Positions 16,860-52,568 of a stretch of 64,000 nucleotides of DNA are shown piece after piece. A program made the translations under genes and the position numbers. Position 1 is the first letter of the stretch. Every line of letters begins with the position of its first letter. The notes beneath the pieces are model-generated. The model ran no database searches. It worked only from the letters and a program-made list of their open reading frames with translations, and was not told where the DNA came from. The stretch is from positions 60,245-124,244 of the forward strand of contig CAZYCQ010000001.1 in NCBI GenBank assembly GCA_964645535.1. Direction: 5' to 3'. The DNA is from an uncultured archaeon. Lineage in GTDB: Archaea; Asgardarchaeota; Heimdallarchaeia; Heimdallarchaeales; Kariarchaeaceae.

Positions 16860-17516
16860 TTAGTGTGATTTGTATCTGACCCTTTCATCAATCTTTCGCA
16901 TACGTTTCAAAATCCTGTGCCCATCCCTTGCAATCTCCAGATATTGGCCAATAAAGTTGTCCCATGCAGGTGCCCAAACAGTCGGGTGTGTACTTTGAAG
17001 GGTTCGGAGCAAAACATTGATGTCAACTGCTTTCTCCTCAATATGACTCGAGAAAAGCGCCAAACCAAAATCAATCAGGAAGGTCTTTTCTGTCCTGTTT
17101 TCAATAACAACATTGGAAGTAGTCAAATCCCCATGAACAATATTCAGATTGTGCAGTAGAGCCACTTGTCTCCCAAGATCGGACAAGAAATCAATGCCAT
17201 GCGGAGTTTCAATGATTTCTTTCAAAAGGGTACCATCTATTTTTTGTATGACAACCGAAGTTTCTTCCTTATCAATGAAAAAGACAAAAGGGACATTAAG
17301 TCCATTCTGTTTGGCTTGAACCAGAACCTTTACCTCTCGAATCAATCTAGCATTCCGAATTGTTTTATCAAGATGGGGGTGACGATATTTCTTGGGGATA
17401 CGTTGTTTGATGACGATTTTCCGACCCAAATACTCTCCAGAAAAAATCAATGCCTCAGCATTCTTTGAAATCAACCTTTCTTTTTTTGGTTTTAACTCAT
17501 TAAGAGAGTATTTCAC
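16860..17516 (-). CDS. bud32: Kae1-associated kinase Bud32 (KEOPS complex).
   Basis: Catalytic loop HGDLTTSNVVI and DFGLA. The 218-aa size fits archaeal Bud32. Confidence 0.8.
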   Translation of the reverse strand: MKYSLNELKPKKERLISKNAEALIFSGEYLGRKIVIKQRIPKKYRHPHLDKTIRNARLIREVKVLVQAKQNGLNVPFVFFIDKEETSVVIQKIDGTLLKEIIETPHGIDFLSDLGRQVALLHNLNIVHGDLTTSNVVIENRTEKTFLIDFGLALFSSHIEEKAVDINVLLRTLQSTHPTVWAPAWDNFIGQYLEIARDGHRILKRMRKIDERVRYKSH

Positions 17517-18555: not shown

Positions 18556-18661
18556 GTAAAATTTCACAAAAAAAATCAACTTTTTTATCACTTCCAGAAT
18601 TTTTACACACGAGTGCTTAAATAGTGACAATTGCATATATAAACATAACACCAGAGAAAAA

Positions 18662-18680
18662 GTACCACCAACGGTGGTAC
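18662..18680. promoter_or_regulatory. Perfect 19-bp palindrome GTACCACC-AAC-GGTGGTAC 16 nt upstream of the TFB start codon.
   Basis: Directly visible in the sequence: 8-bp arms with a 3-nt spacer. Confidence 0.5.
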
Positions 18681-18695
18681 ATTTGGGTGATTATC

Positions 18696-19667
18696 ATGAA
18701 GGAAACATGTTCTGATTGTGGCAGCACAAAAATCATTGAACGCTATCGTGAGGGAACTCTTGTATGCGGTGACTGTGGACTTGTAATTGATCGTATAATC
18801 GACACAAGTTCAGAAATAAGAAGTTCCATCAGTTCTACAGGAACCGTGATTGAAAGGACAGGCAGCCCCATTTCTAACCTGCGACCGGATCTTGGGTTCT
18901 CAACTGAGATTGGAAATCAATCAAGGGATGCCTATGGATCCAAATTGACCGTATTGACCAGAGAGAGAATGAGAAGACTCAGGTGGTTGAACTCACGGAC
19001 ATCGAAATCTGAGATTAGAAATTTGAGAGTGGCACTGAGAGAGCTCAAACGTCTGGCTTCTGCACTTCAAATTTCTCAGGACACTGCATCAACTGCATCG
19101 ATGTATTACAGGAAAGCACTTAAGGCAAAGTTAATTCGTGGACGCTCAATTAATTCAATGATAGCGGCAGCCGTCTATTTAGCCGCACGAAAGCACAATT
19201 TCGCAATTGTCATCAAGGATTTGGAAGAGGTAAGCACTGTCCCCAAGAAAATCATTGCTCGATGCATGCGGGTCTATATGCAGGAATTGAACATCAAACC
19301 AGAACCAACCAATCCTGAGATGATGGTGTCTCGATTGGCAAGTAAGTTGGACATTACCCCAGCAACTCAGAAAGAAGCAATCAAGATCCTCAGACAAACA
19401 AGGAACAAAAGATTGGATATGGGCAAATCACCTATGTCAATTGCTGCTGCCGCGATTTACTTGGCTTGCCTTCGAACTGGTGAACGAAGAACACAGCAGA
19501 TGGTGGCACAGGCCGCAATGACAACACCAGTAACCTTGAGAAACCGTTATCGAGAAATTTCAGAAGCATTGACCATTAATGTCGAAGTGAAAAGAGGAGC
19601 CGCTGCAACACCAGTATATTTCAAATCACCATACAAGAAAGAAAAATCAATTTCAAAGAAAGATTAA
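18696..19667 (+). CDS. tfb: Transcription initiation factor IIB (TFB).
   Basis: N-terminal zinc ribbon CSDCG...CGDCG followed by two cyclin-fold repeats. The likely start is MKETCSDCG at 18696, not the upstream ORF start at 18624. Confidence 0.9.
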   Translation: MKETCSDCGSTKIIERYREGTLVCGDCGLVIDRIIDTSSEIRSSISSTGTVIERTGSPISNLRPDLGFSTEIGNQSRDAYGSKLTVLTRERMRRLRWLNSRTSKSEIRNLRVALRELKRLASALQISQDTASTASMYYRKALKAKLIRGRSINSMIAAAVYLAARKHNFAIVIKDLEEVSTVPKKIIARCMRVYMQELNIKPEPTNPEMMVSRLASKLDITPATQKEAIKILRQTRNKRLDMGKSPMSIAAAAIYLACLRTGERRTQQMVAQAAMTTPVTLRNRYREISEALTINVEVKRGAAATPVYFKSPYKKEKSISKKD

Positions 19668-20553: not shown

Positions 20554-21219
20554 GTGGATCATTCATCGTTTATGGAACAAGTGCGAAATAAATTAGCGAA
20601 CAGAAAAGAGAGACTTGTCAATCGTAACAATTTGAATGATCCTAAGGAAGGAGCTGTTTTGTTTCCTCTCCTTTATGCACCAGATGAGGAAATCCATCTT
20701 CTTTTGGTGAAACGTTCAAACCAAATGAGAAATAACCCAGGAGACATGGCATTTCCAGGGGGTAAACTGGATCTAGGAGAGACACCAATTGAAGGAGCAT
20801 TAAGAGAAGCCGAAGAGGAAGTGGGAATTAAACCTAACCAAGTCAAAATACTGGGAACCATGGATGAATATGTTTCGAGGAATCATACCGTCGTGCGGGC
20901 AGTTGTTGGAGCAATTGAAGTCAATCCCTCAGGAAATTTAAGAGAATGGGCAGAGAGGGTTTTTGCCCCAAAAACAGAAGAAAATTTAGTGACGCTGGTG
21001 ATTCCACTCTCACACTTTCTGAATCCACAAGTCTATTCTTCTAAAAAATATATTGGATCGAATAATCGAGTGGGATATATTCGCTATTTTGATATTTCCG
21101 AATATCTCCCAACAGAAAAAGTTTGGGGACTTACCGCCACGATCATCAGAAGGTTTGCAGATTTATTTTTTGCACACCAGCTACCTGAAGAGCCTTTGAC
21201 TCAAGGAATCCAATCATAA
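20554..21219 (+). CDS. NUDIX hydrolase (CoA pyrophosphatase-like).
   Basis: NUDIX box GGKLDLGETPIEGALREAEEEVGI. Confidence 0.85.
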   Translation: MDHSSFMEQVRNKLANRKERLVNRNNLNDPKEGAVLFPLLYAPDEEIHLLLVKRSNQMRNNPGDMAFPGGKLDLGETPIEGALREAEEEVGIKPNQVKILGTMDEYVSRNHTVVRAVVGAIEVNPSGNLREWAERVFAPKTEENLVTLVIPLSHFLNPQVYSSKKYIGSNNRVGYIRYFDISEYLPTEKVWGLTATIIRRFADLFFAHQLPEEPLTQGIQS

Positions 21220-22250
21220 ATCAATTTTTCACCGGTTTGGATATATTGGAATTTGACATCTCTTATTTTAAGCAATAGCTGTTCCTGTTCTTGTTTTTCA
21301 GGGATAATTTCATTCAAGAGGGTTTTTCCGCTTATAATGGAGGCAATTCCTGCACTAGAGAGTGAATAGGAAGAATCTCCTTTTGCGATAGCATTTGGAT
21401 TTTCCTCACCAGTTAAAAGAAGACGATTGTAGTAATCTGGATGAGCTGAAAGAATACTGAACCCATGGTGAGGTCTGAAGGACTCTGGATCTTTAATGAC
21501 CGTATTGAATGCATCTATGGCGGCCTTATTGGGAAGGAAAATATTCCTTGAGATTACCCCCCGTAACATTGCCTGGATGGAATATGCCTCTTCAATAATC
21601 GAAAATGGGATCATCGTAATAAGTTCATTTATTGTACTTCCATGAATATCTCCCTCAAAAATAGGAGGTGCATTCATCAACTTTTCAAAATGATCCATGG
21701 GAAGAAGGATCATATTAATTTCCCTTACATTCGTAATGAATTTTCCCTTATCCAAACTGAATTCAGTGAAGAGTATGCCAGGCCCTGAGATCATGGCCAA
21801 TTGAACACCCAATTTGTCCTGAACGATTTCAATTTCATTGTTCAGCATGATAATTGTATCCTTTCGGATTTCAACAACCGGACGATTCAAATAGAAGCCC
21901 AAGGTTTTCTTTTCAAGAAGGGCAGACCAAGATGGAATAATCAGCAAGGAATTGAGGTTCTTCTTTTCAATTTCTCTTAGACGAGCCAATTTCAGTTCTT
22001 TGTCAATTCTTTTGATCTCTTCATCGATCGTGTTTATTATTTCATCTACGTTTGTAGCAAATTGCCTTTTGGGAAAGCCGAAATCACTCATGAATAAAAG
22101 CAGATCACGAATGGAGAATTCGCCAAGATCCATTTCATCGAACCGATCTGTGCTACTATAATAATATCGTAACAACTCTAGTAGCCTTTTTGTGCGAAGT
22201 GCATCTTGGTATGAATCTGTTTTCTCTATGTCTAACGGGATGACATCCAC
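21201..22250 (-). CDS. Hypothetical 349-aa protein with no recognisable motifs, immediately downstream of and co-directional with the SNARE-like gene.
   Basis: Long ORF in a non-overlapping frame. There is a 61-nt gap to the SNARE-like gene. Confidence 0.5.
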   Translation of the reverse strand: MDVIPLDIEKTDSYQDALRTKRLLELLRYYYSSTDRFDEMDLGEFSIRDLLLFMSDFGFPKRQFATNVDEIINTIDEEIKRIDKELKLARLREIEKKNLNSLLIIPSWSALLEKKTLGFYLNRPVVEIRKDTIIMLNNEIEIVQDKLGVQLAMISGPGILFTEFSLDKGKFITNVREINMILLPMDHFEKLMNAPPIFEGDIHGSTINELITMIPFSIIEEAYSIQAMLRGVISRNIFLPNKAAIDAFNTVIKDPESFRPHHGFSILSAHPDYYNRLLLTGEENPNAIAKGDSSYSLSSAGIASIISGKTLLNEIIPEKQEQEQLLLKIRDVKFQYIQTGEKLIYDWIP

Positions 22251-22311
22251 CTCCTATTTATTTTGGTTTCCTTCCTTTTATCATTACCCACAGGGATTAA
22301 TAGATTTGAAA

Positions 22312-23040
22312 TCACTTCACCATCCCACTAAGCATTACGGTGGAAATCGCAGTGATTGCAATCAAGATTATTACCCGATTTCCAGTAATTTTCCTACTTA
22401 CCTCCTTGATAAGCTTCTGCGCTTTATCCAATTTGCTATCAAGGACATCAACTTTTTCATCAATTCCCCTGATTATTACACCCTGTTCCTCCAATTGACC
22501 TGCCATGTTATCTAGAGAGTTTTTGATCAATCCTATTTGGGCAGTTAATTGGCTCATTGCCTCAGCAATATTGCTTTCCATCTGATTCATCCGTTCCTCC
22601 ACCTTTTTGATGGCTTCATCCTCTTTACCTCCAGCCTCAAGCTTTACTAGATTGAGATATGCATCACCTATTTCCTCATAATTTTGACGCGAGGTTCGCA
22701 ATGCAATATCTAATTTCGCAATTGAATCTTCAAGGGCAGCCAAGGTGGATTTGTTCCGTCGTATTTTTTTTAGTCTTTCCTCTTCCTGTTTGATTTCAGC
22801 CGGCTTGATAAACGAGGGCAGTGTCGATTTCAGCCTCCCAAATCCCCCGCGTTTTTCCTTGAGTGTTTCCGAATATGATTCATCGAATTCCTCAAATACT
22901 TCCTTCATTGACCCAACTATGTCCTTCAATTCCGTCAGTGTTTCTTCGATGAGATCATCAGTTGTATCCTTTCGGCTTAGCTTCTCCCCTATTTTTTTAA
23001 TAAGAGACTTTTTGCTCTTTTTCTTATGGGTAGCACTCAT
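22312..23040 (-). CDS. Syntaxin-like (Qa) SNARE protein, tail-anchored.
   Basis: The C-terminal segment ...DNMAGQLEEQGVIIRGIDEKVDVLDSKLDKAQKLIKEVSRK-ITGNR-VIILIAITAISTVMLSGMVK aligns by eye with the syntaxin-1 SNARE motif [58 protein letters not shown]. The QG zero layer, the heptad hydrophobic positions, the basic linker and the TM anchor all match with the same spacing. The N-terminal half is predicted coiled coil. Confidence 0.65.
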   Translation of the reverse strand: MSATHKKKSKKSLIKKIGEKLSRKDTTDDLIEETLTELKDIVGSMKEVFEEFDESYSETLKEKRGGFGRLKSTLPSFIKPAEIKQEEERLKKIRRNKSTLAALEDSIAKLDIALRTSRQNYEEIGDAYLNLVKLEAGGKEDEAIKKVEERMNQMESNIAEAMSQLTAQIGLIKNSLDNMAGQLEEQGVIIRGIDEKVDVLDSKLDKAQKLIKEVSRKITGNRVIILIAITAISTVMLSGMVK

Positions 23041-23109: not shown

Positions 23110-25407
23110 ATGATATTTCACAAGTTATTACTTTGCTACATAGAGTTTTTAATCGTCTTTTGGGACACTTGTCTTGTGGAATTTCCACCATACCAAAATG
23201 ATTTTGCATTTAGCCTTCCACATGAAAGGTTTCTTGGAAGTTGTAAAGTCAATGAAATAAACTATGACCTTTTATTAATGGAGATTCCAGTCCTAATTCT
23301 TTTTTTGAGCTTTTTCCAATTCATTTCTTTGCCTTTCAGAATATTTACTGCAACAATTGTTTTTCTGCTCACAACACCTTTTGTATTTAGAAAGTGGCAT
23401 TTTGAGTTGACAAACAAACGTTTGGTTGTTCGTAGATGGTTTGCTGGACTTGAAAGATTTCTTTCTTGGATATCCATTAAACTTTCAATGATTGAAACAC
23501 TGGAAACATCTCCGAGAATTAAAGCTGGACCGCTCCTACTAGGATATTGGATTCTCACATCTTATGCCTTGCCACTGATAGAGTTTGGGTTAAGTGGAGA
23601 AATCCCTCTCCCATTTGCCGTCAAGCTTGCTTTTTTTCTTGGATTGTATTCATCGACTGTTGAAGGGTATGAGGAAGATTTTACACACATATTCATTGAA
23701 CCGATTTTTGAAACCTTTGCCGATGTTTCCTTGATGGCAGGGACAGTCATGCTGATCATTGGTTTGTTTCTTTTCTTGGCAGGATTGCCATATAGAAAGG
23801 AGTTCAGATTGATAACTATTTCTGGACATAGTTTTTCTGTCCGTACGGGTCTTCCAAATGACTTTTTATTTCTCTTGGATGGAATTATGCGGAAACATCA
23901 CATACAGGGAGAATTTGAAAATGAAGTTCACTTTCCGAAACTTATTGATGAAGAACTGAAAGCCAAAGGCAGATTGGGTCTAATAGATAGAAAGAATCAG
24001 TTGATTGGATTACTTTCCCTCATTATGTTTGTTAGAGGGTTCGCAAATCTCTTAAGCAGGTTACAAAATGCTGATCAAAGAGATGTCATTTTTCTTTTTC
24101 TGAATCTAATTGATTTTCTTCTCATTCTATTTTTAATTGTTTTTGCCAAAAGATTTCAGAAGATATGGGCAACAAACCACAGAATAATTTTTCAGGACGA
24201 ACGAAGAGGAATATCTGGCCTATGGGGAAGAAGGATTTTCACATATCGTGATCTACCGTTTTCACAAATCCAAGGGTTCAAGGTTTCCTATTACTCCGGA
24301 TTTTCGCCTTACTCATTATATTTTGGAGTGGGAATCCTCTTGGCAATTCAAGCGATTGCCACATCACTTGCGGTTAAATTACCTTCCAGCCCACATTTTT
24401 TGATCTATTCAGTTGGGGTTATTATTGCCGGTCTGTATCTTCTATTGAATTTCCGGACATTTGGTGAGTTGACCCTATTTTCATTGGGTGGAAGAGTACA
24501 TCGCTTAAGATTCAGAACTCCCTATATTGTATCCAAATTGTCACATAGACTCGAAGGAAAAGAAGGATTGGCCGAAAAATTCTTTCCAAATCTTTTGAGT
24601 GATGCGGAAATTCAGAAAATATGCAATGTAATTAGAGGATACAATGAACCAAAAAGACCTTTGACAAAAAGGGAACATTATCTTGATGCATTTAGTTTTA
24701 TAGGTAAAGATGAAAAAATACTTTTCAGCGTCGAGAAAATAAAACCCCATCCATTTTATTGGCTTTTTGCGATCGTATTCATTCTATCTGGTGTTACAGT
24801 GATTTATGTCTTCATGGTTCTTTTTGAGAAATTTGATTTTCCCAGTGTGGTTGCATCAGGAATTCTGATTGCATCAACTTTATTTCTTCTTGTTCGAACT
24901 GTTGCATTTGCCATCATTAAAAGAAAATCCCTTATTCTAACTGAAGACCGATTAATTGACCAATCTGAAACAAATCCAACCAAGTTGGCCAAATGGCTGG
25001 GATATTTGCCAATATGGGAACTTCGAGAAGTCAGAAATGACTTTGTAACTTCAATAAGACAGCAAATATTGTTTCATAGGTTCAGGCCTAAAGGTATCTT
25101 TTCCTTAGTGCTAATCTCCCTCTTTTCGGTCAAGATTGTTGTTCTCCTTGATTATCCATATTCTTCTTTTGACAGGAATCCTGTTTTTATTGTCCTGATG
25201 CTTTCACCATTTTTGTTGATTTCTTCCATCAACCATTTCCTGTTGGCACTTATGGAAACCATTCCCCGTTATGGACTCAAAATAGAAACACGAAAATTTA
25301 CATTATCATACTCTCATTTCCCAAAATCAAAGCAGTTCGAACAGATTTTTTATCAAGCAGTAAGGAATCGAAACACCTACAATCAAATGATTAGGGAGGG
25401 ACTATGA
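23110..25407 (+). CDS. Large polytopic membrane protein with bacterial-PH (bPH_2/YdbT-like) domains.
   Basis: Segments such as WHFELTNKRLVVRRWFAGLERFLSWISIKLSMIETLE and HRIIFQDERRGISGLWGRRIFTYRDLPFSQIQGFKV fit the bPH_2 pattern next to TM hairpins. The start is uncertain, possibly Met at 23278. Confidence 0.5.
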   Translation: MIFHKLLLCYIEFLIVFWDTCLVEFPPYQNDFAFSLPHERFLGSCKVNEINYDLLLMEIPVLILFLSFFQFISLPFRIFTATIVFLLTTPFVFRKWHFELTNKRLVVRRWFAGLERFLSWISIKLSMIETLETSPRIKAGPLLLGYWILTSYALPLIEFGLSGEIPLPFAVKLAFFLGLYSSTVEGYEEDFTHIFIEPIFETFADVSLMAGTVMLIIGLFLFLAGLPYRKEFRLITISGHSFSVRTGLPNDFLFLLDGIMRKHHIQGEFENEVHFPKLIDEELKAKGRLGLIDRKNQLIGLLSLIMFVRGFANLLSRLQNADQRDVIFLFLNLIDFLLILFLIVFAKRFQKIWATNHRIIFQDERRGISGLWGRRIFTYRDLPFSQIQGFKVSYYSGFSPYSLYFGVGILLAIQAIATSLAVKLPSSPHFLIYSVGVIIAGLYLLLNFRTFGELTLFSLGGRVHRLRFRTPYIVSKLSHRLEGKEGLAEKFFPNLLSDAEIQKICNVIRGYNEPKRPLTKREHYLDAFSFIGKDEKILFSVEKIKPHPFYWLFAIVFILSGVTVIYVFMVLFEKFDFPSVVASGILIASTLFLLVRTVAFAIIKRKSLILTEDRLIDQSETNPTKLAKWLGYLPIWELREVRNDFVTSIRQQILFHRFRPKGIFSLVLISLFSVKIVVLLDYPYSSFDRNPVFIVLMLSPFLLISSINHFLLALMETIPRYGLKIETRKFTLSYSHFPKSKQFEQIFYQAVRNRNTYNQMIREGL

Positions 25408-26360
25408 TCATGAATTGGGATGCCAAGCTAAAAGTGGTAATTTTTGGGAAATACGATCTCAAGAGTATTTTTGAAAAGCATAGAATTCCTGGAGAAAGGC
25501 TAATCGCAGAACAAGACATCCTATATTATTCTGAAATTCCCCTGTTCCTTGCTTTAATTATAGGGATTGTATCTCTTTTCCTCTCTTTGTTGCTGGATCC
25601 CATTTTTCTTGTTGGAATACCAATAATAATTCTAATTACGTATTTTTCCATTTCAATGGAGTTTGTGTTTCTCACCGACGAAAGGATTCTTATTGAGAGA
25701 AGGTATCTGCTGGATAAAATACTATCAACCCGGACAATAATAAACATTGCATTGGATCAGATCTCTATTGTAGAGTCAGGAAGAGCGCCTCCTAATTGGC
25801 CAGTTTCATTTGTCACTATGGGAACCCTCCTTTTATCTGTCTTTTCAGCCATGATTACTTCCAATGTTTTTACCAAGTTAATATGGGGATATGTAGGATT
25901 AATTTCAACATTCATCTTGATTTATTCGTTACGACTATTCAGACGAGCAGTTTCATTATTTGTTGTTGGAAGTAGACTTCCTATTGTAATTGGTGCAAGA
26001 AAAGGGATATCTGTGTATTGGGTGAAGAAACTTCATGAAACATTGTTTGAACGAATTCACCACGTAGAACATATTTATTCATCTCACAAGGAACTTGACA
26101 CCAAAATCAATGAATTCCCGTTGGAACTTCCCCAAAATCTCAAGAAAGTATTGGTCAATCTTTCACAAAATGTGGAAAAAGAGATATACAAACTACTTTA
26201 TTTCGAGCCCCGAACAAAGAAAGAATTGTACTCTGAATTAGAAGATTTCGACAATCATCTAATTGATAATGGCCTATCCCATCTCTCCAAGGAAGGGATG
26301 ATTGTATATGACCGGAGCAGAAGAGTCTGGACAATTACTGGAAAGGTCCCAAATTCATAG
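25404..26360 (+). CDS. Membrane protein with a bPH_2-like domain and a C-terminal winged-helix-like region. Its start overlaps the stop of the preceding gene (ATGA), suggesting translational coupling.
   Basis: LTDERILIERRYLLDKILSTRTIINIALDQISIVE fits the bPH pattern. The C-terminus is KKELYSELEDFDNHLIDNGLSHLSKEGMIVYD. Confidence 0.5.
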   Translation: MIMNWDAKLKVVIFGKYDLKSIFEKHRIPGERLIAEQDILYYSEIPLFLALIIGIVSLFLSLLLDPIFLVGIPIIILITYFSISMEFVFLTDERILIERRYLLDKILSTRTIINIALDQISIVESGRAPPNWPVSFVTMGTLLLSVFSAMITSNVFTKLIWGYVGLISTFILIYSLRLFRRAVSLFVVGSRLPIVIGARKGISVYWVKKLHETLFERIHHVEHIYSSHKELDTKINEFPLELPQNLKKVLVNLSQNVEKEIYKLLYFEPRTKKELYSELEDFDNHLIDNGLSHLSKEGMIVYDRSRRVWTITGKVPNS

Positions 26361-27408
26361 CCTTCCCAGAGGAGGAAGAGGATTGGAGGGCAGTCAAAAC
26401 CCTTTGGAGATTGTAGGCATCCACAAAATTCGGGTTCAAGGAGCGTCCCATTTTTATTGCTCCTGAAAAATCATAAAGAAGTTTCATAAATGGTCCGACG
26501 AGAGGATGGGCACCTTCTATTTTGGGGATGGAGAGACTTTGAGGGATTTCAAGGACATGGGGTTTTTCATCTTCACTTAATCGGGCTCCCCAAAGACGTC
26601 CTTGTTCATCAATCCCCAAATATCCTTCGTTCCCAAAAAACTCGATCCGGGTTCCCCTTCCAAATGGGGAAACTGAGCTGATTTGGACGATTCCGGTTGC
26701 ACCGTCCCCTATTTCGAAGATACCGGAAAATGAATCATCTGCGGTTACCCTTTTCATCTTGCCTGTTTTTTTATTCAATCGTCTTCCAACAAGGGTTGAT
26801 GGTTTCCCATAGACCCTATCTATTCGGTTGAATACCTGGATGAGCATATCGATATAATGTGCACCGACTGAGAAAAGAACCCCTCCTCCTTCGGATCGCT
26901 CACTCCACCAATTATATCCTTTGTCTCGGGGATTTAATCTACTTGGATTTCTTAAGATAATGGTGAAATCATGAACCTTTCCGATATATCCGGATTTCAA
27001 TAGCTCAACAAGATATGCACGGTTCGGAATATATCGAAATTCTAAGTTAACCATTCCCACACTCCCATGTTCCTCAATAGCCAAACGCATTCTTTCAGCG
27101 TCTTTAAGAGTTACACTGACAGGTTTTTCGCAAAGTATATGCTTGTTAGCTTCAACCGCTGCCAATACCATCTCCAAATGATGTTTGGGTGGAGTTACTA
27201 TGCTGACGACATCAATGTCAGGATTTTCCATTATTGATCTCCAATCAGTAGACCAATTTGGTGCCTTGAGTCGTTTCGCAATAGCCTTGGTTTTGGATGC
27301 GTCCTGACCAACGATAACGGCCGGTTCGAAATCCGGATGGTGATAAAAACCCGGATAGTGGACAAGGGAACCAAAACCAGTTCCGATTATTCCAACTTTT
27401 AAGCCCAT
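26335..27408 (-). CDS. Gfo/Idh/MocA family NAD(P)-dependent oxidoreductase.
   Basis: N-terminal Rossmann motif LKVGIIGTGFGSLVHYPGF and the conserved EKP motif LCEKPVSVT. Confidence 0.85.
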   Translation of the reverse strand: MGLKVGIIGTGFGSLVHYPGFYHHPDFEPAVIVGQDASKTKAIAKRLKAPNWSTDWRSIMENPDIDVVSIVTPPKHHLEMVLAAVEANKHILCEKPVSVTLKDAERMRLAIEEHGSVGMVNLEFRYIPNRAYLVELLKSGYIGKVHDFTIILRNPSRLNPRDKGYNWWSERSEGGGVLFSVGAHYIDMLIQVFNRIDRVYGKPSTLVGRRLNKKTGKMKRVTADDSFSGIFEIGDGATGIVQISSVSPFGRGTRIEFFGNEGYLGIDEQGRLWGARLSEDEKPHVLEIPQSLSIPKIEGAHPLVGPFMKLLYDFSGAIKMGRSLNPNFVDAYNLQRVLTALQSSSSSGKAMNLGPFQ

Positions 27409-36752: not shown

Positions 36753-39700
36753 TTAAACTTTGATTTTACCCTCTTCCTTAACGTAATACACAGGCGGTTT
36801 AGCACGAATCCGACATTCTTCAAGAAATTCAAGTAAAGCCGGGTCTTTTTCTTGACGTTTTTGTGAACGTTCAATGGCTTTGCGAACCCGATCAGCAATT
36901 CGATGCCGTGGAATTGCTTCAGCAATTAATGTCATAGTCTCGTATGCATCCCGTCGGATTGAGGCGGATGAATGGTTAGCACCTTTCAAGGCCACCGTGA
37001 CCATTTTGTTGAGCCCTTTCTCGATATTGCCAGGGATGGATTTCATTTTTGAAACTCGTTCCATTGTTTGCTTGAGAACTTGTTTTGCTACGTTTCTTGT
37101 AGCCATTTCTTCATCTGTCACAAGATTGGGAAGCAGGATCAAAGCCTCATCAACTAGAGTAAGATCCCGTTCTACGAGATTTCCAAGCAATAGAGCACCA
37201 GTCTGTCTGTTTCTGATATTTTTTGATTTGACCAGCTTTTTGCTTACGCCTAGGAACTCTTTTGCCAAATCTTTTTTCCGTTCAAGTAATAATTCCACTG
37301 CATCCAAAGCTGTTTCGGAAACACGACCATCAGCGTCTTTCAACGCCATGGTCATTCTTCGTATCAACTCATTTTGGAAAGCATGGGAATGAAGGCCGAT
37401 TCTAAATGAGGCATGATAGGCAGAATTCCTGACATTCCAGTCCTGTGAATTGGTATAGGGATTCAATAAATCTAGGATCTCTTGAGCTAGCGTATTGTTC
37501 CTAATTCCAATTTCACCAAGAATTTTTAGGCATTTTTCAAGGATTTCACCGGAAGAGGAATTAAGTATGTCAGAAACCAATCGGTAAATGGGACGAGCCA
37601 TTTCAGAATGCATTGAGGTCAATTGGAAGAGTAAGTCAAGAGTGGCGGATTTAACCTGTTCGTTTTGATTTTCGACCAAATTTTCTGCTATGAAAAACAG
37701 GTCTTCAGCCAATACGTTTTGGTTATCTGCAAGATAGGTTAAGGCACGAATAATATGCAGTATTACCTCAACATCTTTGTTTTTCTTAAGTACGAGGGAG
37801 AGTAAATTAAAGCACTCCATGTCAAATCGATCTTCCTTTTTCACGATTTCAGCAATCAATTCCACAGTTGCAATCAATTGATCACGTGATTGCATCAATT
37901 CATCAAAGGATGATTTTATGAGATTGAATATCTGGTCTGATTCAACAGTATCGTTTCGAATTGAAAATCTCAATCCTTTTAAAGCATATAGCCGGATATC
38001 CTTATCCTCAGATGAAAAAATGCTGAGAAGGTGCTGGGTGATCGTTTCAATTGTATTGCTTTGAAATGATGCCATATTGGAAAGGATTTTTGCAGAATTT
38101 CGTCGAGTCGTCAAATCCGGATTTTCAAGTTCATTGACCACTAAACCCAGAAGTTCCTCTGTCAAGGAAGGTCTTGCCCTTAAAATTTGCCGCAATGCCT
38201 CAATTATCTGTTCATCCTGTTCTTGTGTGGTATCTTCTTGATGAAGTTGAGTGATAAGTGAGGAAATCAAGAGAGAACCGATTTCATGGCTTTTTCTTGA
38301 TATTTGATGGATAAAATTGAGAACCTGTTCCTGTATCCCGCCAGTTCGTCTTGTAACTGTCCGGATGACCAAGGCAATTATTGCCCCCCTTAGTGACGGA
38401 ACATCATCAATTAATACTTGTAAGGTTCTATTAGCTTCCCAAGAAACAGAAACATCGGGATCGTACAGTTTGCTAATGATAAGAAGAAGCATTTCCATAA
38501 TTCGGTCATCAGAAAAGAGTTTGGCATAGTATTTGAGAGCCCTAGTGGCAAAAATTTTGACACCAACCGATTCATCTTCCAAAGCATTGAGAAGCATCAT
38601 ATAGTAATCCTCATCCGGTTGATCTAGGTTGACAATAATTGAAAGCAAGGCTTTTGATGCCGCCACCCGAACTGGTTCCTTTGGGGAATTCAAGGTTTCA
38701 TGTAGGATCTCCTTGAAAAGGTTATGAGATTCGTTGTCTTCGGAGACTTGCTCTCTTGCCAAGTCAAGGAGAGCAACCAATGCCTTTTCAGAATGAATCT
38801 TATGGTAGAACTCTACCCAACCCGAAATATCTTCGTAATATTCAGGGATTTGCCATACAAGCCTCCTTTCAACAGACCCGGGAGGGTTAAGGATCACGAT
38901 CGTTGAGGAAACAAGAAGGATGAAGTTTTGCAGGATCAGAAAAAGAAGAACCAATCTAGGATGGCGATTTACACCAAAAGCGCCTAAAACATTGATATTT
39001 TGAATTTCAGGGGATAGGCTGGCGTATACTTCGAGAATGCTCGCCAATACCACACCCATCAACACAAAAACAGGAAGGAATAGGCTCAAGGTGGAAATTT
39101 TGAAGCCACTTTCATTCCATACCGCGAGCATTTCCTTTAATGCACCACGTCCCTTGTTTAAAATTGAAAGGGTAAAGATTGCACCAACACTAAAAGAAGC
39201 CACAGCAGTTCCTTTTTGGGAAATGGTGACAATATCCAAGACATTTTCTATAACAAAAAAGAGAGTTGTCAACAACGCTTGAATTGCGAAAAGAACAAGC
39301 AATGCCCGCCCCAATTCAACTTCTGGAATCAGCCGGAATGACCCGTCAGGATCCCTGAATTTGAGTTTTGGCCACCCCAATCTGAAAAAATCTTTCCAAA
39401 AACGTCCTTTTCGAACAAGTTTCAGTGTGAGCAAATCTTCACCAAGTCCGGAACCAGCCAATGCCCCAAGGTTAGCCATAGGCAGAACAAGAGCCCACAA
39501 AAGGATTGCGGTTATGAAAGACGTGTGCAAAAATTGAATCAAAAGAAAAATAGGTAAAATGTAAAGGCCAAGATAAGCAACCAATGTGGCGAGAATTCGT
39601 GATTTTAATTTCTGTGCAAGATCTTCCATTAGTTCCTCAATAATGAATTCAGCAGGAATTGCAGATTCCTCACCCATTTCAGAAAGGCTGTAAAATTCAA

Positions 39701-40076
39701 AAAACGGGAAAATCAAAAGAAAAGCAACGGTAATAAGTATCAGGAAACGAGACAATAGAGTACTTTCTGCATCATTCAGGATTTCTATTGAGACGACAAA
39801 CAGGGTGACAAATCCCAATGCCACCAAGAGAGAGAAAAGGTAAAGCGCAATCAATCGAGAAAAAGGAAGATCCCCGACATCTGTTACTCCTGCTGTATTT
39901 TTTACTTCATCAGCAGCAAATGAATAAGAACCCAAGGTAATTAGGACAAATAAGATTGAAGCCACTCCGGAAACGACCAATGGATCCAAAAATTGCGGAT
40001 CTTGGGTAATGGTAAAAAGAAGATAATAGATAAGAACAATCATTAAACTAAGAAAAAGGGAAATACGAGGTTTCAC
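36753..40076 (-). CDS. Giant (1107 aa) membrane-anchored HEAT/ARM-repeat protein.
   Basis: The N-terminal ~400 aa carry more than 10 TM helices. The C-terminal ~700 aa carry repeated HEAT-like units, for example VRVAASKALLSI, VGVKIFATRALKYY, VRNSAYHASFRIG and IRRDAYETMTLIA. Confidence 0.6.
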   Translation of the reverse strand: MKPRISLFLSLMIVLIYYLLFTITQDPQFLDPLVVSGVASILFVLITLGSYSFAADEVKNTAGVTDVGDLPFSRLIALYLFSLLVALGFVTLFVVSIEILNDAESTLLSRFLILITVAFLLIFPFFEFYSLSEMGEESAIPAEFIIEELMEDLAQKLKSRILATLVAYLGLYILPIFLLIQFLHTSFITAILLWALVLPMANLGALAGSGLGEDLLTLKLVRKGRFWKDFFRLGWPKLKFRDPDGSFRLIPEVELGRALLVLFAIQALLTTLFFVIENVLDIVTISQKGTAVASFSVGAIFTLSILNKGRGALKEMLAVWNESGFKISTLSLFLPVFVLMGVVLASILEVYASLSPEIQNINVLGAFGVNRHPRLVLLFLILQNFILLVSSTIVILNPPGSVERRLVWQIPEYYEDISGWVEFYHKIHSEKALVALLDLAREQVSEDNESHNLFKEILHETLNSPKEPVRVAASKALLSIIVNLDQPDEDYYMMLLNALEDESVGVKIFATRALKYYAKLFSDDRIMEMLLLIISKLYDPDVSVSWEANRTLQVLIDDVPSLRGAIIALVIRTVTRRTGGIQEQVLNFIHQISRKSHEIGSLLISSLITQLHQEDTTQEQDEQIIEALRQILRARPSLTEELLGLVVNELENPDLTTRRNSAKILSNMASFQSNTIETITQHLLSIFSSEDKDIRLYALKGLRFSIRNDTVESDQIFNLIKSSFDELMQSRDQLIATVELIAEIVKKEDRFDMECFNLLSLVLKKNKDVEVILHIIRALTYLADNQNVLAEDLFFIAENLVENQNEQVKSATLDLLFQLTSMHSEMARPIYRLVSDILNSSSGEILEKCLKILGEIGIRNNTLAQEILDLLNPYTNSQDWNVRNSAYHASFRIGLHSHAFQNELIRRMTMALKDADGRVSETALDAVELLLERKKDLAKEFLGVSKKLVKSKNIRNRQTGALLLGNLVERDLTLVDEALILLPNLVTDEEMATRNVAKQVLKQTMERVSKMKSIPGNIEKGLNKMVTVALKGANHSSASIRRDAYETMTLIAEAIPRHRIADRVRKAIERSQKRQEKDPALLEFLEECRIRAKPPVYYVKEEGKIKV

Positions 40077-46518: not shown

Positions 46519-46989
46519 ATGGTTGAGCTCGACAAAATTAAGTTTGTAACCATTAAATACGTAACTGAAGAACAGGAGCTAGTTTACGAAGCAGTTAGGA
46601 GAGTGCTACCAGAACAGGTGGCAAAGTCCATAAGCCTAAAGAATTTTTCGAAGATGAGCGTTATTGGGCAGTACGGAGATCCCATGCTTCTTATTGAGCT
46701 CGTCATCAATAAAAAGCCGAAAGAAGTCATAAAACATATCTTTTCCAAACTCACCGAGACTGAAAAAAAACGTCTCTTACACGAATTCAACACGAGATTC
46801 GATCCTGAAACAACAACCTTCTTCTTTAGGTTAGATAAATTCTCTCCACTCAAAGATGATCTTTATCTCAATGATGGATCTGATGTGATAAAAGTTGAGC
46901 TCAAGTTTAAGGTGTATGGAAAATTGGATCCTGAAAAGATAAAAGAAATACTCCAGTCGCTAATGGGTTTAGAGGAAGATGGAATATGA
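46519..46989 (+). CDS. Hypothetical protein immediately upstream of the RNase P subunit genes.
   Basis: 156-aa ORF that overlaps the start of rpp30 (ATGA). Confidence 0.4.
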   Translation: MVELDKIKFVTIKYVTEEQELVYEAVRRVLPEQVAKSISLKNFSKMSVIGQYGDPMLLIELVINKKPKEVIKHIFSKLTETEKKRLLHEFNTRFDPETTTFFFRLDKFSPLKDDLYLNDGSDVIKVELKFKVYGKLDPEKIKEILQSLMGLEEDGI

Positions 46990-47633
46990 GAGGGATTGAA
47001 TGGAGCCCATTTGTATGGAAAAATCAACTCCATATAGCAGAAAAACTTGGGATAACAGCCTGTGCAATAGAAGGAGACTTGCCAAAGAGAACCATACTTC
47101 ATTGTTTTAGAAGGAAAACACTTTCAGAAATCAATGGAAAAGTTCAGAAAAAAAATCTGAAAAAAACGGTTGCTGGTCTCAGGTCGGATTTTGATTGGGT
47201 TTCCATTGAGCCCTCTTCAATTAAAGTTCTGGTCGATGCAATTGCCTTTCCTCAGGTTGATGCAATCATGTTAACTGCATCGTCACCATTGAAATTGGCT
47301 CACCAAAAATACCTTGCTCTCCTTCGTGATCATTCAAAAATTCTTGAAATTGATTTGAATCCGTTTTTCTCATACAGGTCAAAGCAGAAAGAAATCACAA
47401 AGTTGCTCAAAATACTGAACCTAGTCCGTCAAAAACCGCCACAAGTAGTTTTTACGATCTCAGATTCAAATCCTTTTTCATTTCGCAGATACAGAAATCT
47501 CCAATCGTTGGGAAATTCCCTAGGGATTGATATCAATTATTCATCACTTCGTCCGTTTATTGAAAACATTAAACGGAACAGGAAACGGAGAGAAGGAAAA
47601 CTAATCTCAGGAGACATTGAGGTAGATAATTAA
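46986..47633 (+). CDS. rnp3: RNase P protein component 3 (Rpp30/Rnp3).
   Basis: VDAIMLTASSPLKLAHQKYLALLRDHSKILEIDLNPFF and VVFTISDSNPFSFRRYRNLQSLGNSLGID parallel the VDAI...RPLL and RRFLTSSA...DVRYPRDLISLG regions of archaeal Rpp30. Confidence 0.7.
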   Translation: MRGIEWSPFVWKNQLHIAEKLGITACAIEGDLPKRTILHCFRRKTLSEINGKVQKKNLKKTVAGLRSDFDWVSIEPSSIKVLVDAIAFPQVDAIMLTASSPLKLAHQKYLALLRDHSKILEIDLNPFFSYRSKQKEITKLLKILNLVRQKPPQVVFTISDSNPFSFRRYRNLQSLGNSLGIDINYSSLRPFIENIKRNRKRREGKLISGDIEVDN

Positions 47634-47965
47634 TGACTGTGAAAATTGATAAACGGAGATACCTCTTGGTGAGATTTCTAGGTAAAAAGCCAAAGAGAGA
47701 AGAGTTTGACAAGGAAATAAGAAAAATTGTACGGTATTTCTACGGTGAACTTACACTGATTTGGAGCAACTTACACATTGTGGATGAATGGAATGACTTC
47801 TTCATCATTCGAACCAATCACAGGTATGTTGATCAAATAGAAGCCGCAATAACCATTATGTGGTCTGAAGATTTTATTGCAGATATAATTTGTAAATCGG
47901 GAACTATAAAAGGACTCAAACGTAGATTCAAAAATTTATTTGAGACGGCGTCCGTGAGCTCGTAG
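47633..47965 (+). CDS. rnp2: RNase P protein component 2 (Pop5/Rnp2).
   Basis: N-terminal KRRYLLVRF (R.RYL motif). 110 aa. The start overlaps the rpp30 stop (TAATGA). Confidence 0.7.
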   Translation: MTVKIDKRRYLLVRFLGKKPKREEFDKEIRKIVRYFYGELTLIWSNLHIVDEWNDFFIIRTNHRYVDQIEAAITIMWSEDFIADIICKSGTIKGLKRRFKNLFETASVSS

Positions 47966-48523
47966 ACTTGGTCTTGCTTTTTCAACACCACGACCTTTGC
48001 GGAACAGACCCCTTGATTTCTTCCCGGCAGCAGTAAGGCCTCGGTAAGTACGACCCTTGTGAACCTTCCGGTTGATCCAAGCAATTCTTTTGTCATTGAC
48101 AATTGCAGGATGAACTGGATCCACCATGATAATTTCGAACCATTTGGATCGACCATCTTGGCCTACCCAATAGGAGCCCAAAACTTCAAGATTAGGATAT
48201 TTTCTTTGAGTTCTTGTTTCTGCGATCCATCTAAGGTTCCTTCCACTTGTTTTGTCAATTGCAAGGTTTACACCTCTGCTTCTCCCTCTATTTGGACGGG
48301 ACATCCGTCGGGAACCCCTTCTCACCTTCGTCCTTACCACAACATACCCCGGTTTAGCCTTATAACCCAAGGCACGAGCACGATCAATTCTTAATGGACG
48401 TTCAACGCGTACAATCGTGTTTTGTCGTCTCCATTCAATCAGGCGTGGTTTTTGGATTGCCTTGAATTCTGGTGTATTTCTTTTTCTCCAAAACATTCTG
48501 ACATTTTTGTACAGATTAGTCAT
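47936..48523 (-). CDS. rpl15e: 50S ribosomal protein L15e.
   Basis: WRRQNTIVRVERPLRIDRARALGYKAKPGYVVVRTKVRRG is the characteristic L15e core. Confidence 0.9.
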   Translation of the reverse strand: MTNLYKNVRMFWRKRNTPEFKAIQKPRLIEWRRQNTIVRVERPLRIDRARALGYKAKPGYVVVRTKVRRGSRRMSRPNRGRSRGVNLAIDKTSGRNLRWIAETRTQRKYPNLEVLGSYWVGQDGRSKWFEIIMVDPVHPAIVNDKRIAWINRKVHKGRTYRGLTAAGKKSRGLFRKGRGVEKARPSLRAHGRRLK

Positions 48524-48611
48524 TGTTATCACTTCCCTGTGTCACATTACGATCATTCACAGCAAATTTTCTCTAATTCATGAGAATTAAAAACTAGCGT
48601 TAGATTTCAGG

Positions 48612-50345
48612 TCAATAACTGTTGGTTCGGAATTCAGGAATCTTAAGTTGAGGGATTTTTGTCAGATCAATTTCAAAAGCGGAAATCGGAACAATTATTC
48701 CATTATGTTCCAAGATTTCAATTTTCAGCTCTCCAATGATTCCAACTGGATTTCCGTTCACCAAAACTGAAGCAGACCTTCCAGGAATAAGGTAATTGCT
48801 TTCAGTTTCCACCAAGTCATATTCTATTCCTGTTAACCTGAAGACTGCATCAAGTACCCTATGGGCAGTTTCAAAAGTTTCATCGGACCCCGCCAAGACA
48901 ACGGCAGCCTTTGTAAGGGTGACAACATCTTCACCATCTCTGATAGCCACTTCACCTGTTTCAAACACGTGGTGAGGAAATGGAACTTCAGAATTCCTCT
49001 TTACAAAACGGATCAGGCCAGGAAGAAGATCGGGACGAAGGTATTCAAAGGTTGAGGTAACAGGATTTGTTAGACGGATGACATGCTTTCGCAGAAAATC
49101 ATCATCCCTCAACACAGCATCGGTAATGGTTGCTCGATCAGTTAAATTGTAGTTCATCACTTCCTGCAATCCACAGCCTACCAAAATTTCTCGGACAAGG
49201 TTTTCCTTTTGGGTGGAAACATGGAGCCCGCCTACTGTAAAGAGGTTGGCTGTTGATGGACCTATTTTATTGTAATCTGCTGCAATTGCAACCTCTTCAG
49301 AAATATCCACCCAATGCATGATGTCATGTCGCCAAGGGCCATACAAAACAACCAACTTGTCTTTGTTGGAACCGTTCCTGACATCATGACGTCTTTTCTT
49401 AATCAATTTCTTGATTTGTGTTTTGGTAAAACTAGTTCCCAAGTACTTGTTGATTTCCTTCACATCAACCTCGATTTCACCAGGGTCTTGAGGGGGATAA
49501 ATCATTTCGGTAAAATCGTAACCTTCAGGATAGTGAACCTTGACTTGACCCACTTCAGCACCTCGATCTGCAAGGTTTTGAGCCAGAAGGGAAATGACAA
49601 CCTTGACAGCTTCATGGTTGGTACCAGTGACCTCGACGAGGATATCAGTGGTTTCTTCAGTCACTCTTCCCACATCATTCGAGTTGATGATTGGAGGAAG
49701 AGAGAGAACTCCACCTTCTGCATCTACTAAAATTGGGACTTCATCAAAACCTGAAATGATGTGCCCATATTCAATTCCTTTAGGATGTTTTTCCAGGATT
49801 TCCTCTATTGTCATCTCGGTTTCAAAACCCAGAGGAACAAATTTGAATGATTTAGGAACGGTTTTGTATTGGATGGGAGAGGTGATCATGTTGAGGTTAT
49901 AGATGCCGATGGAAGTTCTTTTCCTTCTTCTTCCAAAGGAGAAGTCCACCTTATCTTGAACCTGTATCAGTTGCTTGATCAGGAAATCATTCAGCTTAAG
50001 TCCTTTAGCAACAACTGCCGCAACATATGGACGAATTGACTGAACACCTTTACTGACTTCAATGGAATACCCGGAGTCAGGGAATTTTAACTTTGGGAGT
50101 CCAGGTTTATCTAGCAGTCCACGAATTTCACGTGCCAATCCTTCAGCACTCCAAAGATCTGGACGGCTTGCAGTTTTGATGTCTATGGATATCTTGGTAT
50201 GTCCGTTCTCATCTGGACCTTCAGGGTCTGAATCCACCTCTGCCTTTGCAAATGATACAAGGTCATCAAGTTCGGATGGAGACAGTGCCTGCTTCAGACC
50301 GAGAAGTCTTGAAAAATCTTCAATTGAGATATCGATTGTAACCAT
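48612..50345 (-). CDS. pheT: Phenylalanine-tRNA ligase beta subunit (archaeal type).
   Basis: About 577 aa with B3/B4 and B5 domains and a catalytic-like core. Its start lies 2 nt from the stop of pheS on the same strand. Confidence 0.85.
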   Translation of the reverse strand: MVTIDISIEDFSRLLGLKQALSPSELDDLVSFAKAEVDSDPEGPDENGHTKISIDIKTASRPDLWSAEGLAREIRGLLDKPGLPKLKFPDSGYSIEVSKGVQSIRPYVAAVVAKGLKLNDFLIKQLIQVQDKVDFSFGRRRKRTSIGIYNLNMITSPIQYKTVPKSFKFVPLGFETEMTIEEILEKHPKGIEYGHIISGFDEVPILVDAEGGVLSLPPIINSNDVGRVTEETTDILVEVTGTNHEAVKVVISLLAQNLADRGAEVGQVKVHYPEGYDFTEMIYPPQDPGEIEVDVKEINKYLGTSFTKTQIKKLIKKRRHDVRNGSNKDKLVVLYGPWRHDIMHWVDISEEVAIAADYNKIGPSTANLFTVGGLHVSTQKENLVREILVGCGLQEVMNYNLTDRATITDAVLRDDDFLRKHVIRLTNPVTSTFEYLRPDLLPGLIRFVKRNSEVPFPHHVFETGEVAIRDGEDVVTLTKAAVVLAGSDETFETAHRVLDAVFRLTGIEYDLVETESNYLIPGRSASVLVNGNPVGIIGELKIEILEHNGIIVPISAFEIDLTKIPQLKIPEFRTNSY

Positions 50346-50346
50346 T

Positions 50347-51968: not shown

Positions 51969-52568
51969 TTACTTAAACTTTTGTGCTTTTTCTCTCTTTG
52001 TTTGCTGATTATGTTTTTCGATGAAATATTCGATCATGTGGTTAAAGGCTTTTTCAATATTTTCTCCTGTTTTAGCGGAGGTGTAATAAAATTTTATTGG
52101 ATTCCCTGTCCGCAGGGAAAGTGCTTCAACTTTTTTCTCGATTTCTTCCTCTGAGACTGCCGCTTGTTTCTCACCATTTTGGATAAGATCCACCTTGTTC
52201 CCCAAAACGATGATGGGAACTTTCATTTCATGGCTATAACTGATTTCATTGAGGAATTCTTCAAGAAAACCATCAAGATCATCAAAGGATTTGCGGTCAG
52301 TAATATCAAAAACAATGAAAGCTCCATCTGATGCGCTGTAATATAATTTTCGTACATGATGAAAGGTTTCTTGACCGGCTATGTCCCATATCTGGAGAAT
52401 AAATTCACCCAAAGGATGGTCGATACGTTTAACCGCAAAGTCAGCGCCAATAGTTAGGGAGTAATTATGTTGAAATTGTTCACCGAAGTAATTTCTTCTG
52501 ATACTGGTCTTGCCAACCCGTTTCCTTCCTATGAGAATTACCTTGAATTGTTTTGGAATGTTCAACAC
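51969..52568 (-). CDS. Rab-like small GTPase (Ras superfamily).
   Basis: G1 GRKRVGKTS; switch I TIGADF (RabF1 IGVDF); G3 ILQIWDIAGQE (RabF2 KLQIWDTAGQE); YYSASDGAFIVFDITDRKSF (Rab YYRGA.G...V.D.T...SF); G4 GNKVDL; G5 YTSAKTGENI. No C-terminal Cys prenylation motif. Confidence 0.8.
   Translation of the reverse strand: MLNIPKQFKVILIGRKRVGKTSIRRNYFGEQFQHNYSLTIGADFAVKRIDHPLGEFILQIWDIAGQETFHHVRKLYYSASDGAFIVFDITDRKSFDDLDGFLEEFLNEISYSHEMKVPIIVLGNKVDLIQNGEKQAAVSEEEIEKKVEALSLRTGNPIKFYYTSAKTGENIEKAFNHMIEYFIEKHNQQTKREKAQKFK

Follow-up and report, generated by a model that had tools for sequence, protein, structure and literature searches.

SNAREs are the core of the eukaryotic membrane-fusion machinery, and the SNARE-like proteins of Heimdall-group archaea are the only candidates for archaeal precursors. 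One such protein, of 242 residues, is encoded in a 64,000-nucleotide stretch of contig CAZYCQ010000001.1 from an uncultured archaeon of the Kariarchaeaceae (the whole stretch is called the window below), where its gene lies beside that of a 349-residue protein. The locus raises two questions: what kind of SNARE the 242-residue protein is, and whether its neighbour has anything to do with it. A first-pass annotation, made without database searches, had proposed a syntaxin-like Qa-SNARE co-transcribed with a partner that might be a Sec1/Munc18 (SM)-like protein, a tether or a disassembly factor. We found that the 242-residue protein is already known, being one of four published prototypic SNAREs, and our analysis corrects its assignment: it is not syntaxin- or Qa-like. 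What is new is the linkage of the SNARE-like gene, resistant to rearrangement, to the gene for an Asgard-only protein without a known fold.

The window is archaeal in content, with a TFIIB gene at 18624..19667 and a G+C content of ≈39%. Both open reading frames (ORFs) were correctly located in the first-pass annotation, on the same (minus) strand and separated by 61 nt (22251..22311); the 349-codon ORF begins with GTG. The features of the locus are as follows.

22312..23040, minus strand: gene for the 242-residue tail-anchored SNARE-like protein of the HPS family (ORF; identity to RMG36020.1)
22966..23040, minus strand: polybasic N-terminal peptide, residues 1–25, MSATHKKKSKKSLIKKIGEKLSRKD (conserved in family alignments)
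22399..22557, minus strand: SNARE motif, residues 162–214, with 16 heptad layers from −7 to +8 (layer conservation and syntaxin-6 match)
22483..22485, minus strand: codon of the zero-layer glutamine, Q186 (translation; aligns with syntaxin-6 “EEQ”)
22375..22398, minus strand: basic linker SRKITGNR, residues 215–222 (T219, G220, N221 and R222 invariant in the family alignment)
22321..22374, minus strand: single C-terminal transmembrane segment and tail anchor, residues 223–240, VIILIAITAISTVMLSGM (Kyte–Doolittle scan)
22251..22311, minus strand: intergenic spacer of 61 nt (sequence reading)
21201..22250, minus strand: gene for the 349-residue soluble protein of an Asgard-restricted family (ORF; homologue searches; AlphaFold model)
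21963..22250, minus strand: N-terminal helical module of the 349-residue protein, residues 1–96 (DSSP of the model)
21297..21962, minus strand: beta-rich core domain of the 349-residue protein, residues 97–318, the part common across Asgard archaea
21204..21296, minus strand: long C-terminal helix of the 349-residue protein, residues 319–349

Rich in A/T, the spacer contains TATA-like GATAAAAGG and AAAATAAATAGG, and a GGAG stands shortly before the GTG start. The A/T boxes may hint at an archaeal promoter, and no oligo-T run was found on reading the 61-nt sequence.

Identity of the SNARE-like protein

Direct comparison showed the 242-residue protein to be identical at all 242 positions to RMG36020.1 (P0055 in our protein set). 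This sequence is one of the four “Heimdallarchaeota prototypic SNAREs” (HPS), the others being HPS1 (PWI47941.1), HPS2 (OLS22354.1) and OLS23218.1 (Neveu, Khalifeh, Salamin & Fasshauer; bioRxiv 10.1101/810531; Curr Biol 2020 30:2468), and it is listed there as the fourth archaeal SNARE-like sequence (bioRxiv 10.1101/810531). The SNARE itself is thus not new. Identity to HPS2 (P0008) is 48%. The 349-residue protein matches RMG36019.1 at 348 of 349 positions, and the locus tag of that entry adjoins the tag of RMG36020.1. RMG36019 was named in no paper of the literature searched, and the text of the Neveu et al. preprint makes no mention of the genomic neighbourhood of the SNARE genes (bioRxiv 10.1101/810531).

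The closest homologues of the 242-residue protein all came from Heimdallarchaeia, and homologues of both genes bore out the Heimdall-group origin that had been claimed from the sequence. The public record of RMG36020.1 is labelled “Euryarchaeota / Methanobacteriota archaeon”. Since the homologues of both genes come without exception from Heimdallarchaeia (Kariarchaeaceae-like), this label is a misclassification, as had already been suspected (bioRxiv 10.1101/810531). A profile search placed the SNARE family in 16 clusters, all within a single Heimdall clade of the HPS2 type; the search was also aimed at the divergent HPS1 and LC_3-type SNAREs, and returned the HPS2-type clade alone.

Architecture and SNARE motif

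In a tail-anchored SNARE, a short linker connects the motif with one transmembrane anchor at the C-terminus, and the protein has this layout: after the motif come the 8-residue linker SRKITGNR, a hydrophobic segment of 18 residues and a tail of two residues (VK), the only ones that would lie beyond the membrane. Residues 223–240 were the sole hydrophobic segment of the protein in a Kyte–Doolittle scan. The string quoted in the first-pass annotation, NMAGQLEEQGVIIRGIDEKVDVLDSKLDKA, corresponds to residues 178–207, ahead of the linker, hydrophobic segment and 2-residue tail.

With Q186 as layer 0, 16 layers spanning 53 residues could be assigned with the canonical 3/4 spacing: M162, L165, I169, I172, L176, M179, L183 and Q186, followed by I190, I193, V197, L200, L204, A207, I211 and V214. 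Among 13 family members, the 15 non-zero layers were 99% hydrophobic, compared to 20% at the other positions of the motif, and layer 0 was Gln in 12 of the 13 and His in one. The heptad and zero-layer pattern noticed in the first-pass annotation is therefore real and conserved across the 13 homologues. The exception is an orthologue with the sequence DEHGV at the center of the motif (L009, 2432–3154, minus strand, and P0011), in which the 15 hydrophobic layers are intact.

The motifs of five eukaryotic SNAREs (Syx1A, SNAP-25N, SNAP-25C, Syb2 and Stx6, with sequences entered by hand) were slid without gaps along the whole 242-residue protein. In all five cases, the best offset set Q186 on the zero layer, with z values of 3.3–7.3 relative to shuffled sequences. 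By these measures, the SNARE-likeness of the protein is beyond what chance would give.

The N-terminus is polybasic and conserved, with the consensus MSxxxKKKKKKSLxxKIGEKFGKG. K10, K11, K16 and K20 were invariant or nearly so in two family alignments (A1 and A4), and K10 and K20 were invariant. This peptide is not discussed in the text of the Neveu et al. preprint (bioRxiv 10.1101/810531). It could be an acidic-lipid binder or, by analogy with the syntaxin N-peptides that bind SM proteins, a docking peptide.

Relationship to the eukaryotic SNARE classes

A phmmer search of 177,635 distinct PDB sequences returned a single significant match, the SNARE motif of syntaxin-6 (2NPS_D, E = 1.5e-4), which covered residues 159–219 (61 residues) and aligned the zero-layer Gln of syntaxin-6 with Q186. 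The family profile found the same single match in the PDB (E = 1.9e-4), and syntaxin-1 was absent from the PDB matches of the 242-residue protein at E ≤ 10. The in-register BLOSUM62 scores, again with hand-entered eukaryotic motifs, followed the same order: 83 for Stx6 (Qc), 50 for SNAP-25C (Qc), 40 for SNAP-25N (Qb), 27 for Syx1A (Qa) and 21 for Syb2 (R). Syntaxin-1 shared 12 identities with the protein over 54 residues in register (22%), and nine were counted in the quoted 30 residues, so that a match described as “nearly residue for residue” was too strong a claim.

In the Pfam searches, V-SNARE_C was matched by ten of the 13 family members (best E = 1.3e-4) and the SNARE profile PF05739 by eight (best E = 1.6e-5). 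PF05739, one of the two profiles that the first-pass annotation had named as checks, was thus found in these eight members and missed in the window protein itself (E = 0.7). The other, the Syntaxin/Habc profile PF00804, failed altogether, with no match in the window protein at E ≤ 10 or in any of the 13 members at E ≤ 0.1. The N-terminal domain of syntaxin-6 (PF09177) likewise had no significant match in the window protein (E = 0.24).

These results agree with the published analysis, in which syntaxin-6 is the closest human SNARE to the archaeal family and the family takes a tree position outside Qa, Qb, Qc and R (bioRxiv 10.1101/810531). The closest eukaryotic relative of the 242-residue protein is, as far as its motif indicates, the Qc-SNARE syntaxin-6 and not syntaxin-1, and the protein belongs to none of the four eukaryotic classes. 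We rejected the Qa/syntaxin assignment on the scores (27 for Syx1A, the lowest of the Q types, vs. 83 for Stx6), on the missing Habc profile and on the missing syntaxin-1 match in the PDB. What stands of the original description is the tail-anchored, Q-type SNARE-like architecture, with its tail anchor, 16 layers and central Gln; the Qa subtype does not.

Conserved linkage of the two genes

Forty-five loci around genes of the 349-residue family were collected from species-representative genomes, and their six-frame ORFs were searched with hidden Markov models (HMMs) of both families. (The loci carry L numbers below.) Six further loci came from searches that started from the SNARE proteins and from a metagenome scan, which gave one new locus (L056; another, L057, was the same contig as L006), bringing the SNARE-bearing contigs to 18 in all. 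In every one of the 18, the 349-residue gene lay within 5 kb of the SNARE gene, and in 14 it was directly adjacent. Two contigs had one small gene between the pair, DinB-like in LC_2 and encoding a 78-residue zinc-ribbon protein in L053. Two genes intervened in L052 and eight in L055, where the pair was 4.7 kb apart. The arrangements were as follows.

SNARE gene then 349-residue gene in tandem, directly adjacent: window, L004, L005 (plus L052, with two genes between)
Divergent, directly adjacent: L006–L010, L013, L054, L056 (plus LC_2, which is L050, with one gene between)
349-residue gene then SNARE gene in tandem, directly adjacent: L011, L012, L014 (plus L053, with one gene between)
Convergent, 4.7 kb apart: L055

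Synteny of the two genes, which the first-pass annotation had proposed to check, thus holds in other genomes. Co-transcription, however, is not a conserved property of the pair, since the genes are divergent in eight adjacent loci and in LC_2, and their order is reversed in three. Wherever the 349-residue protein was at least 45% identical to that of the window (L004–L014), the SNARE gene was adjacent. No other gene was common to more than five of 14 loci, the next best being a CBS-domain gene (5/14). The proximity of the pair is conserved beyond background synteny. Because the pair was kept while its arrangement and its other neighbours changed, the association is specific and has survived rearrangement.

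A comparison of the window (21201–23040) with L004 (3670–5503), in which the proteins are 79–88% identical, showed the SNARE–349 pair inverted as a unit. The flanks were alike in the two, with TFIIB, CBS and NUDIX genes at one end and an oxidoreductase-like gene at the opposite end.

The genes that flank the pair in LC_2, L053, L054 and L055 sit 24–29 kb away in the window (46519–51846). Among them, RNase P subunits and ribosomal protein L15e were confirmed by Pfam, and PheRS-like subunits are suspected, from their lengths only, at 48612–51846. With the homologues of these flanking genes so far away in the window, the wider neighbourhood has evidently been shuffled while the pair stayed together.

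Some neighbours of the SNARE gene recurred in part of the set. In L053 (4519–4755, minus strand) and L055 (4553–4783, minus strand), the gene directly upstream of the SNARE gene, and divergent from it, codes for a conserved zinc-ribbon protein of 76–78 residues (KCxxCG...CxCG); a HAD hydrolase gene lies immediately downstream in these two contigs. Both are absent at the window locus. Two related contigs have Arf-like GTPase genes at a distance of 1–5 kb from the SNARE gene (L053, 6458–6925; L054, 1–26).

The 349-residue neighbour

The first-pass annotation had seen no recognizable domain in the 349-residue ORF, which was borne out by searches of Pfam, NCBIfam and the PDB sequences, none of which gave a match. 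Its 40 close homologues were all from Heimdallarchaeia (Kariarchaeaceae, Heimdallarchaeaceae, Heimdallarchaeum aukensis and H. endolithica). When 1.84 billion representatives were searched exhaustively with a profile, the family grew to 109 proteins, or ≈110 clusters at 50% identity, and all named relatives were from Promethearchaeota, Lokiarchaeia or Heimdallarchaeia. In 73 of the 109, the profile covered at least 190 positions of the part equivalent to residues ≈98–335. This core is often N-terminal in proteins of 450–800 residues with K/E-rich tails; such long forms are present in Lokiarchaeia, and the N-terminal helical module is missing from most of the long Lokiarchaeial and Promethearchaeotal relatives. 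For nine family members, the first 100 residues were scanned against Pfam, with no consistent match.

An AlphaFold2 model of the 349-residue protein, made from a 28-sequence alignment, had a pLDDT of 87.3 and a pTM of 0.81. According to DSSP, the model consists of helices at residues 12–32, 47–57 and 68–96, a beta-rich core (100–310) and a helix at 319–345. Two confident AlphaFold models were searched against solved structures in PDB libraries. Foldseek gave no significant match of the 349-residue model in the PDB (best E = 0.16, TM = 0.15), and the only partial fold matches were Sm/SH3-like barrels. The residues conserved family-wide are W108, G118, Y120, D131, G156, G158, F164, P215, G231, R235, P240, K242, L267 and G301. 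These appear to be mostly structural, with no catalytic-looking set among them.

The proposal that this protein is SM-like, a tether or a disassembly factor found no echo in these searches: neither of the two models matched a Sec1/Munc18, alpha-SNAP, NSF or CATCHR fold. The marks of SM proteins, the PF00995 profile and the three-domain arch fold, were not found in the neighbour, and Pfam and fold searches gave no AAA or SNAP match, the core of the model being beta-rich. SM proteins are ≈600 residues long and the neighbour is far smaller; alpha-SNAP is all-helical, whereas in the model a beta-rich core separates the helical N-terminal module from the long C-terminal helix. With no match in sequence or fold, the 349-residue protein does not appear to be SM-, SNAP- or NSF-like or a CATCHR tether.

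As a possible clue to function, domain fusions were sought among the long relatives; the 20 that were scanned yielded only one HhH_5 fusion and one sub-threshold UPF0175 match. The fusion is in P0143 (545 residues), where the family core is joined to a C-terminal helix-hairpin-helix (HHH_5, E = 1.1e-6). A Heimdall paralogue with a duplicated N-terminal helical module was also seen; the entries listed with these observations are P0143, P0073 (445 residues) and P0089, P0095 and P0100 (600–650 residues). The Promethearchaeotal and Lokiarchaeial forms carry K/E-rich coiled-coil tails of 350–450 residues, misnamed “TolA” or “MAP7 domain” in some sources.

Weighing of the explanations

We consider it probable that the locus is best explained as a published tail-anchored SNARE of the HPS family together with an Asgard-only linked protein, its possible regulator or partner. 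On its own, the proposal that the 349-residue protein binds or regulates the SNARE-like protein of this clade in the cytoplasm is put forward tentatively, at somewhat less than even weight. A bolder version, in which it would be a dedicated partner (a chaperone, assembly regulator or recruiter) docking on the N-peptide or the motif, and the first SNARE accessory factor outside eukaryotes, we regard as rather unlikely.

Several observations weigh against a partnership. The 349-residue family has a much broader range than that of the SNARE (109 vs. 16 representative clusters) and occurs also in Lokiarchaeia, so that the phyletic ranges do not match. No SNARE-like gene, nor any for a tail-anchored coiled coil, was found within 10 kb in 29 full-length loci whose 349-residue proteins are at most 41% identical to that of the window (Heimdallarchaeaceae including H. 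aukensis, AB_125 and others). In Heimdallarchaeaceae, the gene has PfkB-like and AMP-phosphorylase-like neighbours. A divergent SNARE hidden beside the gene in Heimdallarchaeaceae was sought with a motif-only HMM (--max, E ≤ 50) and a scan for tail-anchored ORFs, neither of which found one; recurrent weak matches (E > 1) ≈4.3 kb upstream were noise. Clade-specific residues, considered as a possible signature of an interface, amounted to 17 scattered positions with no obvious patch. Thioredoxin and TFIIB genes lie near the 349-residue gene in both clades, which indicates that part of the synteny is ancient, and in L055 the pair is separated by eight genes.

Much of this would fit a neighbour that is unrelated to the SNARE, a reading to which we give about the same weight as the partnership, somewhat less than even. 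The 349-residue protein would then be a widespread Asgard housekeeping protein, possibly with a nucleic-acid or informational role, beside which the SNARE gene originated or was inserted in the ancestor of a single (Kariarchaeaceae-like) family, and the two would have stayed adjacent by inertia or through a common regulatory region. Besides the loci without a SNARE, the Lokiarchaeial members and the shared thioredoxin and TFIIB neighbours, this reading is favored by KEOPS genes nearby in both clades (Bud32-like at window 16860–17516, by sequence reading only, and CGI-121 in L001), by the HhH_5 fusion in P0143, by the Sm/SH3-like barrels as sole partial fold matches, and by the loosened linkage in L052 and L055. 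It has to contend with the pair being within 5 kb in 18 of 18 contigs and adjacent in 14, even though the proteins diverge to 33–45% identity and the other neighbours are shuffled, and with the survival of the pair through inversion as a unit and through changes of order and orientation, which simple inertia does not predict.

The SNARE identity of the 242-residue protein must also be weighed, since the window protein scored below every Pfam SNARE threshold (V-SNARE_C, 0.068; Sec20, 0.22; PF05739, 0.7), and unrelated coiled-coil families (such as ATG17_like, Fez1 and DUF1664) scored equally well or better in the same scan. It could be a generic tail-anchored coiled coil with a convergent likeness to SNAREs, acting as a static tether, scaffold or membrane bender without zippering. 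The His at layer 0 in one orthologue would be consistent with this, as would the single such gene known per genome and the tethering or membrane-bending role that the authors of the HPS paper themselves allow (bioRxiv 10.1101/810531). Nevertheless, we find it distinctly unlikely, because five eukaryotic motifs all scored best in register, syntaxin-6 was the single significant match among 177,635 PDB sequences, the layers of the motif number exactly 16 and lead into a short linker and then a transmembrane helix, and HPS1 and HPS2 form complexes with neuronal SNAREs (bioRxiv 10.1101/810531). The model from which the analysis set out, a syntaxin-like Qa-SNARE and, on the same transcript, an SM-like protein, tether or disassembly factor, is highly improbable. 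In its favor, the two window genes are 61 nt apart on one strand with no oligo-T run between them, and the motif has a “QG” like that of syntaxins and aligns in register with syntaxin-1. However, syntaxin-1 scored lowest of the Q-SNAREs tested (27, vs. 83 for syntaxin-6), no family member matched the Syntaxin/Habc profile, the family falls within none of Qa, Qb, Qc and R in the published tree and HPS proteins can take several helix positions (bioRxiv 10.1101/810531), most relatives have the two genes divergent or in reversed order, and the 349-residue models match no Sec1/Munc18, SNAP, NSF or CATCHR structure.

Proposed mechanism and implications

In the mechanism that we envisage for an HPS-family SNARE with a linked partner, the tail anchor of the 242-residue protein would be inserted into the membrane after translation, as suggested by the SNARE family at large and by the biochemistry of HPS2, which formed a stable complex with Syx1 and Syb2 in vitro (bioRxiv 10.1101/810531). 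The motif would face the cytoplasm and zipper into parallel helical bundles. Its partners are probably further copies of itself, since one such SNARE-like gene per genome is known (bioRxiv 10.1101/810531). Bundling would then lead to tethering, bending or fusion of membranes. More speculatively, the 349-residue protein might bind the polybasic N-terminal peptide or the motif and so control assembly, having been drawn from an Asgard protein family of wider distribution that would be unrelated to SM proteins, SNAPs and tethers.

The conserved neighbour offers a specific second protein to examine beside the archaeal SNARE-like protein. If the two bind, a regulated fusion or tethering system in Asgard archaea becomes directly testable, and a dedicated partner would represent an independent, pre-eukaryotic solution to the control of SNARE assembly, on a fold without a solved relative. 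If they do not, the neighbour still represents an Asgard-wide, uncharacterized domain family of ≈110 clusters at 50% identity, with no relative among solved structures.

Other genes of the window

Two overlapping genes for multi-pass membrane proteins of 765 and 318 residues, without Pfam or NCBIfam matches, occupy 23110–26360 on the plus strand, where they separate the SNARE gene from the next gene that is conserved (26335–27408), and are absent there in the closest relatives, L004 and L005. Both proteins contain repeated LT(N/D/E)xR(L/I)(V/I) segments after hydrophobic hairpins, which may resemble bacterial PH (bPH/YdbT-like) repeats. A small GTPase of the Ras/Arf family is encoded at 51969–52568 (minus strand), ≈29 kb from the pair. 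A 1107-residue protein with HEAT/armadillo-type repeats (36753–40076, minus strand) had condensin Cnd1, Integrator and GCN1-like matches, and is eukaryote-like in a manner typical of Asgard genomes.

Comparison with known systems

The likeness of the locus to the SNARE accessory systems of eukaryotes (SM proteins, alpha-SNAP, NSF and CATCHR tethers) is limited to the genomic association of the 349-residue gene with a SNARE-like gene. Syntaxin-1 and the Qa-SNAREs share with the 242-residue protein the in-register heptads, the “QG” at layer 0 and the tail anchor, but they differ from it in giving the lowest score of the Q types tested, in the PF00804 signal that it lacks, and in being missing from its PDB matches. 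Syntaxin-6 comes closer, as the sole significant PDB match, with its zero-layer Gln aligned and 28% identity in register; it differs in that PF09177 has no significant match in the archaeal protein and in that the published tree does not place the archaeal family within the Qc clade. The HPS family has the same helical N-terminal region, full SNARE motif with central Gln, short linker and tail anchor, and at the protein level there is no difference at all, RMG36020.1 being the window protein itself.

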